A stretch of DNA of 64,000 nucleotides from Blastocystis sp. Blastoise (GCA_039096225.1 JBBPEB010000002.1:372001-436000); one strand, 5' to 3'; positions 29,824 to 35,645 are shown, numbered from the stretch's first letter. The notes: generated from the sequence alone by a model not told the origin. Program-made: numbers and translations.

Positions 29824-31567
29824 ATAATATAGAATAAAAATACATAAATGAAAGTAAAATAGTAGGAATAATGAGTCAGTATGATGTGTAAGGATATATT
29901 TATATATGTATAAGTGAAAAAGGATGCTAGAAGAAGGGAAAAGAAGTAAAAAAGAATAAAAGAGAAAGAAATATAAAGTAAATGAGATAGGGTCTTTAAT
30001 TATTGAGATTAATAAAAAAAATGAAAAATAATTTATAATAAATGACAAAGATAGATATATAGAGATCTATAATAATAAGGAATGCAGAAGAGAAGAGGAT
30101 TAGAGGATAAAGAATAAGAAGAAGATAAGGAAGATAAGGAAGAAGATAAGGAAGATAAGGAAGAATAAGAAGAAGATAAGGAAGAAGATAAGGAAGATAA
30201 GGAAGAATAAGAAGAAGATAAGGAAGAATAAGAAGAAGAAAAGAAGAATAGGAAGAAGATAAGGAAGATAAGGAAGAAGAAGAAAAGAAGAATAGGAAGA
30301 AGATAAGGAAGAAGAAGAAGAATAGGAAGAAGAATAAGAAGATAAGGAAGAATAAGAAGAATAAGAAGATAAGGAAGATAAGGAAGAAGAAGAAGAAGAT
30401 AAGGAAGAAGAAGAAAAGAAGAATAGGAAGAAGAAAAAGAAAAGAAGAATAGGAAGAAGATAAGGAAGAAGAAGAAGAATAGGAAGAAGAATAAGAAGAT
30501 AAGGAAGATAAGGAAGAATAAGAAGAAGATAAGGAAGAAGAAGAAAAGAAGAATAGGAAGAAGATAAGGAAGAAGAAGAAGAATAGGAAGAAGAATAAGA
30601 AGATAAGGAAGATAAGGAAGAATAAGAAGAAGGAAATGAATAATGACAACAAGAAGATGAAGAATAAATAGAATAATGATAAGAAAGAATAAATAGATTA
30701 ATAAGAGAACAAGAGGATGAATGTGAAGAAGAGACAAGGAAGGAGGTGAAAAAAAGAAAGAAAAGTAAGATAAAGAATAGGAAGAAGATATACAAGAAAA
30801 TGAAGAAGAAGAGAAAGAAAAGAAAAGAAGAATAAACAAGAAACATATATAGAGAAACAGAAAGATATAAAGAAATAAAAGAGATAGATAGATAGATAGA
30901 TAGATAGAGAGAAAAAAAAATACAAAGATATAAATAGATAGATACACTAATAGATGAATAGAAAGAAAGAAGAAAAGAGAGACATAAAGAAGAAATTAGA
31001 TAGAAAGAGATAGAATTCTATATAGAATGAGAGATATACAAAAGAAATCAAATGAAATAGAGAATAAGATAAAAATAGATACAAGAATAAAGATAAAAAG
31101 AGAAATAGAGGAGTAGGGAAGGTGTATAAAAAAGAAAGAATATAAAGATAGGTAGAGAGGAATTGAGAAGGATAGAGAAGGAGGAGGAAAACAGATAGAA
31201 TTGGAAGACGAAGAAAAGAAGATGAGACGAAGAAGGGAGAAAAAAGGAGCAGGAAGTGAATATCAAGAAAGATAAATTTATATAGAAAAAAATTAGAAAG
31301 AAAAATACATACAAAGAAAACGATAGGGAATGATAGAGAGAATTATAATTTGAATGACATAGAGAGAAGGAGAGACAAAGCAAGATAAAGAAGTATAATA
31401 GAAAAAACAAAGAAGAAAAAAAAGAAGAATAAAAAAAGAAAAGATAGAACAATAGTATATGAGAGAAGAAAGAGACAGAAAGAAAACGGGAAATAGGGTA
31501 GAGACATAGAAGGTAATAAAATATATAGAAGGGGAGAGGGGATTGAGATAAATAAATAGATAGATAT

Positions 31568-31640
<73 letters not shown>

Positions 31641-33650
31641 GATAGAAGAATACCGAAAGATATAGAGAAGGAGATAAATATTAATAAAAAGGAAAATATG
31701 GATAGAGAGGAGATAGAATCAAACAGAGAAGGAGAAGTAGATAAAAGTCGATTGAGGGAAGAGAGAAGTAGATTAAAATAAAAACAAATAGCAAGAGTTA
31801 AAAGGAAGAAGGGAAGAATATAGAATGATTTGAAGAATGAGATGTATATAGAAGTGAATAGAAGGAAATAGAGAAGGAGAAGTAGATAGAAAAGATTAAA
31901 AATAGAAGGAGATAGAAAGATAAGAGAATGATATAGATACAATAGAATGAGATAGAGAAGATAAAGTAGATAGAAATGGATAGAAATAAGAAAAATAAAT
32001 AGGATAAGAGAGAAAGAGAGATAAAAGGATATAAAAGGATATAGAAGGAGAGAAAACGGATTGAGATGTAGTAAGATGGAAGGATGTAGATGGAAATAGA
32101 GAAGTAGATAGAAGATGATGGAGAATAAAGAGGAGATAGAAGAGGAGATAGAAGGAGAAAAAGAAGAAGAGGAAGTAAATTAAGTTAGAAGGAGATATAA
32201 TAAGATAGAGAAGTAGATATACGTAGATATAAGGAAATATACGAAGATATAAGTAGATAAGAGAAAATAGAAGGAAATAGAGAATGAGATTGAGACACAT
32301 AAATGAGGTAGAATGAGATAGATAAGGATAGAGAAATATGAAGAGAAATATAGGAATACAGAGAGATAGAATGATGTTGAAAGAGAAAGAAAAGGAAAGA
32401 CTGAAGATTGAGACAGAAGGAGTAGCTGAGATAAAAGGAAGATAGAGAAGGAAATTGAAAGATGAAGGAAGAAGGAGAGAAGATGAAAGAAGAAGAATAT
32501 AGAAGAAGATAGAGAATGAGATAATAGGGATAGAAAGAGAAAAATAGGAAAAAAGATGGTTAGAAGAAAATAGAAAAGGAGAAAGAAGGAGAGATAGAAG
32601 GAGAAATAGAAGGATATAAAAGAGATTAAGAAAGAAGTTAGAGACAAGAAGATATAGATATATAGAAAGAAATAAAAGGATTAAATAGAAGATTAAGATA
32701 GAAGAAAAGAGACAAAATAGAAGTAGATATAACAATATAGAGAATGAAAGGATAGAAATAAAAATAGAAAATAGATAACTAGAACATAAGAATATATAAT
32801 AATAGAGAGAAGGAGAGAGAGAAAAAAAAGTAGATATAAAGTGGAAAAGGAGACATAGAAGGAAATATAAAAGGAAACAAGAAGGTAGAAAGAGACATAT
32901 AAGATAAAATAGACAGGGACAGAGAGAAATAAATGGAAAAAGAATAAGGATAAAGATGGATACGAGAATAGAGAGGGAGAGAAGGAAGATTGAGATAGAA
33001 TTATACAGAAAGAGGAGAGAAGGAAGATAAAGAAGGAAAATAGGGCAGTAAAAAAAAGGGAATCAGAAGGAGGAGAGAAGAAGTATGAGAAGAATAGAAA
33101 GAAGTAAGAGGAGGAAGGCAAATAATAGAAGAGAACTATATATATAATAAATAGTGATATAAATATAAATAAGAAGATGAAGATCTGAAAAAAGCAAAGA
33201 ATTATATGGAGAAGAAGAAGAAGAAGAAGAGGAAGAGGAAGAAAAGGAGGGTATACACTAATACATGTCGAGGAAAAAGAAGTATAGAATAAGGAGAAGA
33301 GGATAACAGGATAAAAGAAAAAGACATAACGAAATACAATGTAAATAGAATAGTGATTAAGAAAGAGTAATGAAAGAGTGATATAAAAGGGAAGCGAAGA
33401 TAAGAGAGAGGTATAATTAAAAAAAAGAAAAATAAAGGAATTTAGATAGAAGAAAAAATAAAAGAAAAATGAAGATCTGAGGAAGATAATGAATCAAAGG
33501 GAGAGACAAGGATATAGGCTGGAGACAAGGCATAGGAAGAAGTAATAAAGAAAGAAGATGAAGAAATAAGGAGATAAAAGTGTAGAAGGAAGAAAATGAA
33601 GAAGAGAGAAGAAGGAATCATTTTGTGTAAGAAGAAGAAATAAAGAAGAA
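29824..33650. repeat. ~3.8 kb low-complexity tract, almost all A/G on + with C nearly absent; includes a compound GAA/GAT/AAG array (~30110-30630) and (GATA)n (~31569-31638)
   Basis: Directly visible composition. The long S/F/L ORFs on - are by-products of it. Confidence 0.9.
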
Positions 33651-35645
33651 CTAGATAATAAATAAATAAATAAATAAATAAATAAACATACCTAATAGAA
33701 AAAAATGAATTTGGTGATGTTGAGTCATAGGGAAAGATAACCAACAGAAACAGTAGAAAACAACCTAAATAAATAAATAATAATAAATAAAAATATAAAA
33801 ATAATGAAAATAAATAATAAAATGAATTAGATTCTAATTTAAGAAAAAACAAAAAGAAAGCTAATAATAGATAGAATGAATATACGATAAGTACTCTATT
33901 ATATAATACTTAAAAATATAACAAAGAAAAAAATTAGAGATAATTATAAAAATAAATAAATACATATATACTTTGAAAGTAGTTTGACATCATAGACGTT
34001 GTTGACATGGACTGAAGAGGACTCTTATAACCATGGACGAGCAGGAACCTATACATGCTAGAGAATGGGAGAATGTTAATATTGATAAAGAATAAAAAAT
34101 AGTAATATACATACAAGAGAATAATCTGAAGTTAAAATCAACTTCTATTTTTTAAAATAACAGCTAATAAAAATAAAATAAAAATAAAGAAAATAAGTAA
34201 CAAATGAAAATATTTTCTAAGTTAATAGGCTCAATAGCGTATGGGTGTATTCAGGTCTTAAAAGAAAAATCATTTTTGCGGGAATATCAAGAAACTCAAA
34301 AAAAGTATTTTTTCCCTCCTTTTTTCACTGTCACTTTTCTTTAATATTTTTGACTTTTTAGTATTAAAAACGATTCTTACAGGCATGTATAGAGACTCTA
34401 TACCACTTTTGAGACTAAAAATCAAATATTTAAAAATGAGTGAAAAATCTTGACTAGCAAGAAAAACAATTATGTGAAGCTGAGTATGTTGTGTATACAC
34501 ATATCTAACAACAGAGATGATAAAAACACACAACTCCTCTTGGTTTAGGACATAATTATGAATTCTCTCAAAAAAGCTATTTTAAACCTTAAAACGATAC
34601 CCTGAACTATAAATCAAGTCCTGAATGATATTCTAAAGTCATATTTTTAAAAACAGGTTTAATGACGATAATCAATAAACAAAAACAAGAGCTTCCGTTT
34701 TACTTTTCTTTTTTGAATTTTTAATTGTTTTGACTTTCTAGGGTAGTTGGCTGAAAGAAATGTTGTCGTCTTTAGGCTAAAAAATGATGAATAAAAAAGT
34801 CAAGTCATTTTATTGTTTTTTCCTTGGGAAATAAAAAAGAAGAAATTTTTAGGTGTGTTTTGGTTTAGGCTGTATAATGGTTTTTATTGTAAAAGGACTT
34901 GACGAGAATGATTGAAATGATAATACATCACTCAGAGAACACACAACTTTAAAAAATTTGTCACTCATGTAATCCATTCCTGAATTATAGACTTCAGAGA
35001 AAAAATTAAAGTCTTTTTGGTTTTAAACAGTCATTTTAAATCATAAAACACTGTAAAATAGTCAATATTTAGAATGTCTATGATTATATAAATAAACAAT
35101 ATATTTTGTAGAGTTATTTTTAAGTTTTTCTCGTCAAAAAGAGAGAAACTTGACAAGTTGGCGGACACTCTTTTCTCGAGTTTAGGCCAACGTATTTTTG
35201 ATTAAAAAATCCCAGTCATTTTGTTGTTTCTCTTACGGGAAATAGGGTCAAAAAAACACAAAATGTCCATAGTGAATATTTATATTAAATTCATCAAGTG
35301 TAAAGGTATAAGTTACTTCTACTAAAGTCACGAATGTTGTGTATTCAATGAAACAGATAAAGATATTACAAATAGTCAACAGTTGACAAAATTTTAAACT
35401 TATAATCCGTTATTATATCTACAACAAATACACTAAACCTTAAACCCTACAATATTCGACCCCAACAACAAAGAGAATGAAGAAGACAGATTAGTAAACA
35501 AAAAGAAGAGAAACAAATAAGAAAAAACAGTAAATATACTGAAAAATTTAAATAAATTGAGAATAATAAAAACTATATATAGAATTAATAATATAAATAT
35601 TTATAGAATTCATTTAAAATAATAATATAATAAATGTATTATTAT

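Follow-up and report, generated by a model that had tools for sequence, protein, structure and literature searches.

A tRNA-like element following a pyrimidine-rich, putatively spliced non-coding unit in Blastocystis sp. Blastoise

A stretch of 64,000 nt from Blastocystis sp. Blastoise (GCA_039096225.1, JBBPEB010000002.1:372001-436000), in the following called the window and numbered from its first nucleotide, contains on its minus strand a 69-nt tRNA-like cloverleaf that directly follows 3.8 kb of strongly pyrimidine-biased sequence, which in turn is preceded by three predicted introns. Judged from its sequence, the tRNA mimic is real and unusual, and its position is suggestive. Our tentative explanation, which we rate somewhat below an even chance, is that a spliced non-coding RNA polymerase II (Pol II) transcript is cut by RNase P, probably in its protein-only form, at 29824/29823. 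The features of this unit are listed below.

34115 to 34162, minus strand: exon preceding intron 1, read from sequence (34162 is not a mapped 5' end)
34049 to 34114, minus strand: intron 1, 66 nt, GTATGT...TATAG, moderate support
33972 to 34048, minus strand: exon, 77 nt, GC 0.42, read from sequence
33765 to 33971, minus strand: intron 2, 207 nt, GTATAT...TTTAG, strong support
33692 to 33764, minus strand: exon, 73 nt, GC 0.32, read from sequence
33651 to 33691, minus strand: intron 3, 41 nt, GTATGT...TCTAG, good support
29824 to 33650, minus strand: U/C-rich, G-poor, unstructured tract of 3827 nt, defined by composition and change points; the best model makes it the terminal exon, a rival one partly intron
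31546 to 31640, minus strand: tetranucleotide microsatellite inside the tract, about 24 copies
30110 to 30695, minus strand: degenerate tandem repeat with 9/12/21-nt units inside the tract
29755 to 29823, minus strand: tRNA-like cloverleaf, 69 nt, supported by folding, shuffles, Rfam alignment and a descriptor
29766 to 29776, minus strand: perfect B-box coinciding with the T arm; the pattern matches nowhere else in the window

The tRNA-like element and the unit ahead of it

The preliminary description of this DNA had placed a cloverleaf on the minus strand next to the tract, and it proved to be genuinely tRNA-like and to share the tract's orientation. It consists of a 7-bp acceptor, a 4-5-bp D-like arm that is fused straight to the acceptor and carries GG at 29808-29807, a 7-bp anticodon-like stem with a 5-nt loop, a 2-nt variable region, and a 5-bp T arm with the loop UUCAAUU; the discriminator base is U. 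All 23 pairs of this four-arm model are Watson-Crick. The folding energy of -20.6 kcal/mol (z -4.3) was equalled by none of 200 shuffles, and the cloverleaf is the top-folding 75-nt window on the minus strand of the spacer in which it lies. Six of the seven acceptor pairs had probabilities of 0.88-0.97 in a 300-nt context, and two hairpins as stable as those of the inner 37 nt occurred in 0 of 5000 shuffles. A descriptor combining T loop, T stem and acceptor matched the window only at this site; 6 of 400 simulated windows contained a match.

The Rfam tRNA model RF00005 aligns to positions 1-71 with 23.3 bits against a cut-off of 29 (E 0.0069 in a 201-nt search) and with a deletion in the linker. 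At the gathering score Rfam returned no match, and over 26500-35600 it gave only two matches, both at chance level. ARAGORN missed the cloverleaf at default settings; under relaxed settings it called Lys(ttt) or Ile, but the same settings yield dozens of false genes. The element keeps G18/G19, the T-loop consensus (UUCAAUU) and the 7+5-bp acceptor/T stack. Neither U8-A9-G10 nor U33 with the normal anticodon loop remains, and most of the variable loop is gone. Drawn with a 7-nt loop, the anticodon arm would read A-G-UUU-A-U with G at position 33; the stable form has the 5-nt loop. A canonical tRNA was therefore rejected, since the U8-N9 linker, a variable loop of 4-5 nt and a 7-nt anticodon loop with U33 are all absent. 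The alanine identity pair of transfer-messenger RNA (tmRNA) is G3-U70; the cloverleaf has U3-A70 and gave no tmRNA call, and a tmRNA or mitochondrial tmRNA identity was likewise rejected.

Every deviation of the cloverleaf from tRNA sits in linkers or loops. That several changes all spare the stems points to selection on RNA shape without a decoding role, as far as a single sequence allows, and the element fits better with a selected mimic of the tRNA elbow than with a working or decaying tRNA. An exact 23-nt cloverleaf pattern had 0 matches in metagenomes. A relaxed pattern retrieved 21 public loci (1 viral, 20 from metagenomes) with the same acceptor strand and T arm, all of ordinary tRNA shape; they keep the two-base linker, with T8 in 21 of 21 and A9 in 19, and none has a pyrimidine tract upstream. 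A three-base slip suffices to convert an ordinary tRNA start into that of the cloverleaf, and because the 21 look-alike loci keep the linker, the element may plausibly have arisen from a normal tRNA by such a short slip. A 31-nt blastn match to a phage was dismissed as chance.

The introns 34114-34049, 33971-33765 and 33691-33651 had been proposed in the preliminary description; their coordinates are exact, all have GT donors and TAG acceptors, and introns 2 and 3 are well supported and intron 1 moderately. GC content is 0.24, 0.12 and 0.10 in introns 1, 2 and 3 and 0.42, 0.32 and 0.30 in the exons that follow them (the last value for the first 101 nt). A composition-only fit blind to GT and AG hit intron 2 base for base (33970-33766), placed intron 3 within 5 nt and was off by 27 nt at the 3' end of intron 1. 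Splice sites were scored with a matrix from 19 hand-picked introns, chosen partly via the same GTAT rule and one of them off register by one base, so that the donor scores are partly circular and flattered. Background sites scoring as high as those of intron 2 amounted to 0 of 257 GT and 1 of 272 AG; the counts were 10 of 257 and 13 of 272 for intron 3, and 8 of 257 (a fair donor) and 175 of 272 (a weak acceptor) for intron 1. Between 33600 and 34200, four strong donors were found on the minus strand and none on the plus strand. An additional intron farther upstream had a poor splice score, though it was tested one base off register.

The tract from 33650 to 29824 is composed of 56.5% U, 26.2% C, 14.9% A and 2.4% G. 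The nearly pure pyrimidine tract of about 3.8 kb in the preliminary description thus stands in its length (3827 nt) and in its extreme bias, with the purity overstated at an actual 83%. The pyrimidine share reaches 91% in the repeat at 30690-30100 and drops to 73% over the final 276 nt; 3-kb windows give 84% in the tract versus 58% at best elsewhere in the window. The mean minimum free energy is -1.3 kcal per 200 nt versus -24 and -30 in the flanks. TCTT, a PTB-type motif, occurs 276 times where 181 are expected, TATC is also abundant, and only 13 AG dinucleotides are present. AATAAA is absent from the tract, which is unsurprising given its composition. Pyrimidine-biased, G-poor leaders of 0.4-0.8 kb were also found at 40941-41700 (plus strand) ahead of RagA and at 23421-23800 (minus strand) ahead of DENR. 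These weaker and shorter sense-strand tracts have the same polarity, which suggests minus-strand transcription of the tract.

Little speaks for the proposal that the tract forms triplex DNA or R-loops. Purine mirror repeats with arms of at least 12 number only 6 (the longest 15), the longest pure purine run is 44 nt, and a minus-strand RNA so low in G (2.4%) forms R-loops poorly. On the plus strand the 3.8 kb contain a single run of at least four T, so that RNA polymerase III (Pol III) reading away from the cloverleaf would find no terminator; there is no evidence of such reading.

At its 5' side the tract has its change point at 33650, the first base past intron 3, and at its 3' side at 29819 (support 29808-29831). 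Part of the sharpness of the latter is due to the cloverleaf, which itself carries G residues. After excision of the cloverleaf, three of four test windows put the change point at +21 nt relative to the junction (support -26 to +60 twice and -106 to +28 once), and the widest put it at -88 nt. The skew, said earlier to end at the 5' base of the cloverleaf, therefore ends near the cloverleaf and not at that exact base once the element is removed.

That no coherent protein is encoded was borne out. The three-base periodicity of the tract (block chi2 7.2) resembles that of intergenic DNA (5-6) rather than coding controls (43-45), and its longest open frames were matched in 25 of 300 simulations on the minus strand and in 239 of 300 on the plus strand. 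Pfam at its cut-offs returned nothing for five tract frames. Neither of two minus-strand frames of 248 and 134 codons was found by exact look-up in a protein collection, and the longer one had a match at E<=0.001 in 0 of 7988 candidates, all of them proteins of 136-434 residues. A plus-strand K/E/R-rich protein was considered and rejected, there being stops in all frames and no periodicity.

Genomic setting

The cloverleaf and its upstream unit lie in a unique spacer of 8829 nt (26596-35424) between two inverted gene-bearing arms. Around the unit the following further features were delimited.

35425 to 41623: right arm of an inverted duplication, with RIO1, DENR/SUI1 and what looks by eye like a gene for ribosomal protein P1
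34250 to 35424, minus strand: upstream region, strand-balanced, with the densest TGAC/GTCA cluster of the window by motif counts
27250 to 27909, minus strand: second spliced unit without a long sense frame, from splice scores and composition fit; same or separate transcript
27844 to 27908, minus strand: first downstream intron (27908-27844), weak
27561 to 27714, minus strand: second downstream intron (27714-27561), with a strong, top-scoring donor
27439 to 27502, minus strand: third downstream intron (27502-27439), with a strong, top-scoring donor
27301 to 27388, minus strand: fourth downstream intron (27388-27301), with a strong, top-scoring donor
20415 to 26595: left arm of the inverted duplication, 99.6% identical to the right arm

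The upstream region contains 16.2 TGAC/GTCA motifs per kb compared with about 3.3 in the window and ranks first among 1175-nt windows; we infer a candidate promoter or a transposon-derived end. Downstream of the cloverleaf, the preliminary description had expected non-coding exons of the same RNA. A second spliced minus-strand unit does exist, in which no sense frame stays open across the introns. However, about 1.5 kb of strand-balanced, intergenic-like DNA part it from the cloverleaf, and it may therefore be a separate gene. The reverse complement of this spliced unit has a 76-codon frame open across two junctions. Its 43-codon exon had one match, to a 3042-residue repeat protein with about 40% identity over 26-28 residues, which was rejected as inflated by repeats.

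The arms of about 6.2 kb are 99.6% identical, with 1 mismatch, the remaining differences being small indels. DENR/SUI1 and RIO1 were called by Pfam. The left arm is likely the derived copy, since its outer end leads to no gene, whereas the outer end of the right arm leads into the RagA leader. With arms in this orientation the 8.8-kb spacer could flip by recombination, and the arms may also have originated in assembly. A role as centromere or boundary was considered in view of the inverted repeat and dropped, as there is no evidence for it and the arms are ordinary genes. For the DENR/SUI1 protein, the top database match is a Blastocystis protein with 95% identity over 95% of the query (some intron read-through included); other Blastocystis proteins share 56-59%. 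This match comprises two accessions on one contig, as expected from the duplication, though the record may not be independent of the window. The window has about 22% GC and short GTAT...TAG introns; an AT-rich Blastocystis clade has been described as diploid, with introns that are longer and variable and with low-complexity DNA making up about 12% of the genome (PMC10690189).

Both inner ends of the arms (26570-26595 and 35425-35450) terminate just past a degenerate TTTAGGG-like run. We take TTTAGGG to be the telomere unit, as in other stramenopiles; the 9-nt matches to it at the two inner ends are 2 of 5 in the window. A motif of 27-29 nt, 26/29 identical, occurs in inverted orientation near both spacer ends (26710-26736 and 35260-35288), and the local alignment of the two flanks of the spacer exceeded 500 of 500 shuffles by a narrow margin. 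At 26732-26954, a GC-richer unit of 73 nt is present in three tandem copies and was not seen elsewhere in the window. A Helitron at 55623-60496 has a Rep/PIF1 frame of 1238 codons that looks intact; next to it lies a frame of 403 codons in a different register. No Helitron-type 3' end was found in the window with our own descriptor, a weak test because it also misses the real Helitron there, and no similarity of the locus to the Helitron flanks was found. Neither a telomere-template-like run nor an Sm site was found in the unit.

Synthesis and processing of the candidate RNA

RNA was sought in assembled contigs of public runs, which were placed on 33810-35420 only. A run search with the downstream stretch gave shares of 0.56 for run X1 (its kind is guessed), 0.06 for X2 (poly(A) gut RNA; an unplaced share that does not count as evidence) and 0.00 for two runs. 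X1 behaves as DNA: its 5 contigs on 33810-35420 have 0 joints, are unspliced through intron 1 and cover intergenic DNA at an even depth of 2-3. They are identical to the window at 33820-34161 and 34961-35274, and X1 may be the source sample. X1 also contains a second version, diverged by about 7%, of 34371-34607 (16 differences, 2 gaps) and of 34900-34990 (6 differences), presumably an allele or paralog of the upstream region. X2, X3 and X4 had 0 contigs on 33810-35420, by which absence of transcription is not proven.

According to the explanation we favour, Pol II would start near 34.2-34.3 kb, below the TGAC/GTCA-dense region, and the three introns would be spliced. The polymerase would then read through the tract, which has no AATAAA and few AG, into the cloverleaf, making the tract the terminal exon. 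A single transcript would agree with the orientation and order of the parts, and the composition switches at 33650 and near the cloverleaf. All forms of RNase P are described as gauging the distance from elbow to acceptor, and PRORP as reading the G18-U55 and G19-C56 pairs (PMC10941002). The same source says of stramenopiles as a group that they use PRORP in all compartments in place of the RNA enzyme. The mimic would keep the features measured by RNase P, namely a 12-bp stack of acceptor plus T arm and the G18/G19-U55/C56 elbow, while those for translation are lost, which is why it may serve as a cleavage tag. RNase P would cut at its 5' base (29824/29823), and RNase Z would free a small RNA at 29755, with participation of the CCA enzyme. 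The upstream RNA of about 4 kb would then end in a single-stranded U-rich tail without a triple helix. Either this tail would be held by pyrimidine-tract-binding proteins on an unstructured multivalent scaffold, or the RNA would be short-lived and the small RNA the lasting product. A scaffold for pyrimidine-tract proteins is the function we prefer, as a conjecture by analogy. The full scenario, in which Blastocystis independently evolved a spliced pyrimidine scaffold RNA of about 4 kb whose 3' end is made by a protein-only RNase P at an elbow mimic and kept without poly(A) or triple helix, with release of a mascRNA-like small RNA, appears doubtful to us.

Several observations weigh against a spliced transcript cut at the mimic. 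Not a single splice joint was found in the public contigs on 33810-35420. The tract contains 18 GTA sites as possible donors, and strong splice-site scores inside it favour the plus strand (14 donors versus 2 on the minus strand), an excess that is probably a compositional effect. Once the cloverleaf is taken out, the 3' boundary is sharp only to within tens of bases, and the bias of the tract declines over the final 276 nt. Leader and trailer pair by only 3 bp beyond a 2x2 mismatch in a 101-nt fold, and because a U-rich nuclear expression element (ENE) as well as an A-tract is absent, the new 3' end would have no known protection. No homolog of the cloverleaf was found in pattern searches of metagenome and viral sequences or by phage blastn, and there is therefore no covariation to assess. 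Low-complexity DNA makes up about 12% of AT-rich Blastocystis genomes (PMC10690189). Finally, the perfect B-box, the A-box-like D arm and a downstream T-run allow independent Pol III transcription.

Since a perfect B-box and a downstream T-run are present, Pol III could make the cloverleaf RNA alone. The cloverleaf would then be an autonomous gene for a tRNA-derived small RNA, and the upstream unit a separate Pol II transcript ending nearby, possibly at a TFIIIC/Pol III roadblock, which we regard as somewhat unlikely, yet as the strongest of the rivals. The B-box is the only one in the window, the D arm lies at tRNA-like spacing from it, the first run of at least five T past the cloverleaf is at 29701 (54 nt downstream), no 3'-protecting element precedes the cloverleaf, and the tract boundary is approximate. 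On the other hand, compared with the A-box consensus the D arm is imperfect (T8 is missing and one base is extra), and its placement behind the tract in the same orientation would have to be coincidental or depend on the roadblock. An Arabidopsis element with a likewise altered A-box, that of GUT15, is not transcribed by Pol III according to its description in PMC6152437. GUT15 itself, a multi-exon long non-coding Pol II RNA with an intronic tRNA-like RNA showing an abnormal acceptor-D junction and anticodon arm (PMC6152437), provides the model for another explanation, which we consider unlikely: both exon groups would belong to one non-coding RNA, and a single large intron, from which the tRNA-like RNA would be cut, would take in most of the tract together with the cloverleaf and roughly another 1.9 kb. 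Both groups are indeed minus-strand and non-coding, and donor-like GTA sites are present in the tract at 33337 and 33264. However, the local introns have 2.5% C compared with 26% in the tract, the DNA from the cloverleaf to the downstream exons looks intergenic and not intronic, and all 19 candidate reference introns are shorter than 300 nt.

Neutral DNA, that is a decayed tRNA pseudogene with an expanded low-complexity tract and leftover exons, or an assembly error between the inverted repeats, is a distinctly unlikely explanation. The nearly identical arms (99.6%), the Helitron in the same window, the frequency of low-complexity DNA in such genomes (PMC10690189), the slip that accounts for the tRNA start, and the failure to find a homolog or RNA all agree with it. 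Decay is at odds with several separate changes that spared 23 of 23 pairs and with splice signals of intron 2 that top the background. X1 matches 33820-34161 and 34961-35274 perfectly and contains 0.56 of the downstream words, which speaks against this explanation, though X1 may come from the source material itself; no Helitron-type end (by the weak descriptor) or similarity to the Helitron flanks was detected. It is highly unlikely, finally, that the unit is an mRNA that codes for a small hydrophobic protein and has a very long 3' untranslated region. An 88-codon ATG frame spans introns 2 and 3, one frame is open over all three junctions, and the introns would fall in the leader and coding part and not past the stop. 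But stops are rare on the U/C-rich strand, and the spliced model has six ATG frames longer than 40 codons. The 65-residue unspliced part of the 88-codon frame had 0 of 27 candidates at E<=10 among proteins of 35-114 residues and no Pfam family (the joined peptide itself was not searched), and periodicity is lacking.

Comparison with known systems

With canonical nuclear tRNA genes and pseudogenes the cloverleaf shares the geometry of acceptor and T arm, the GG of the D loop, the B-box and the alignment to RF00005. In contrast to these, it is only 69 nt long, lacks U8-A9-G10 and U33, has a variable region of 2 nt and scores below the gathering cut-off. Like the candidate RNA, human PNCTR is long, rich in repeats and pyrimidines, and offers potential PTB-type motifs by the hundreds, but it is described as a Pol I transcript (PMC6224606), whereas spliceosomal introns and a tRNA-like end are predicted here. 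GUT15 of Arabidopsis resembles the locus in being a multi-exon non-coding unit and in its tRNA-like element, in which the T loop is conserved, the A-box altered, the acceptor-D junction abnormal and the anticodon arm non-canonical (PMC6152437). It differs in that this element lies in an intron and its linker is longer by one base (PMC6152437), while in Blastocystis the linker is missing and a 3.8-kb pyrimidine tract, which may be exonic or intronic, precedes.

A MALAT1/NEAT1-like architecture, as proposed in the preliminary description, stands as far as the minus-strand exon/intron anatomy, the lack of a coding signal and the tRNA-like element directly after the tract are concerned. As in MALAT1 and NEAT1, a long non-coding stretch leads on the same strand into a tRNA-like cloverleaf that is compact and has an acceptor of 7 bp. 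The cloverleaf combines a 7-nt T loop with a 5-nt anticodon-like loop, as does human mascRNA (bioRxiv 10.64898/2026.01.19.700226), and cuts by RNase P and then RNase Z are predicted, in agreement with the release of mascRNA by RNase P, RNase Z and the CCA enzyme (PMC8457004, PMC10424219, PMC12502584). Membership does not stand. None of the 54 U-rich runs in the tract forms an ENE-like U-rich internal loop (ENE as defined in PMC8457004). A triple-helix A-tract had already been reported missing, and indeed no A run exceeds 1 nt within the final 40 nt or 3 nt within the final 150 nt; a 7-nt leader-trailer helix is also absent. Furthermore, the Blastocystis unit has three introns, a U/C-rich instead of a mixed sequence, a stramenopile host in which PRORP is expected, and RIO1 and DENR as neighbours instead of FRMD8-SCYL1. 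mascRNA, too, reportedly lacks the 8-9 linker. Rfam gave no mascRNA or menRNA among 5 families at E<=10, where overlapping clan-mates are hidden by the tool; we presume that both families are present in the release used and belong to a clan. MALAT1 apparently is confined to jawed vertebrates (PMC10869381). The locus departs from the MALAT1/NEAT1 group in three defining features of the 3' end and in its distribution and is therefore not a member, but it may still work like one.

In a 2025 survey, MALAT1 and NEAT1 are given as the only long non-coding RNAs matured by the tRNA-processing machinery (PMC12941219). Among open-licence full texts, none joined Blastocystis with mascRNA or with RNase P and PRORP, and none described a protist long non-coding RNA with a tRNA-like structure together with mascRNA. 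If the full scenario holds, the locus would be the first such RNA outside vertebrates within reach of the literature searched. A single-protein RNase P would then suffice for this processing, and the persistence of a 3' end that has no triple helix would imply that it is protected in a new way. Even if Pol III makes the cloverleaf RNA alone, the locus would represent an unannotated tRNA-like small RNA missed by ARAGORN and by the Rfam cut-off. As a convergent stramenopile counterpart of MALAT1 and NEAT1, it would indicate that tRNA mimicry is a general way of ending Pol II transcripts.

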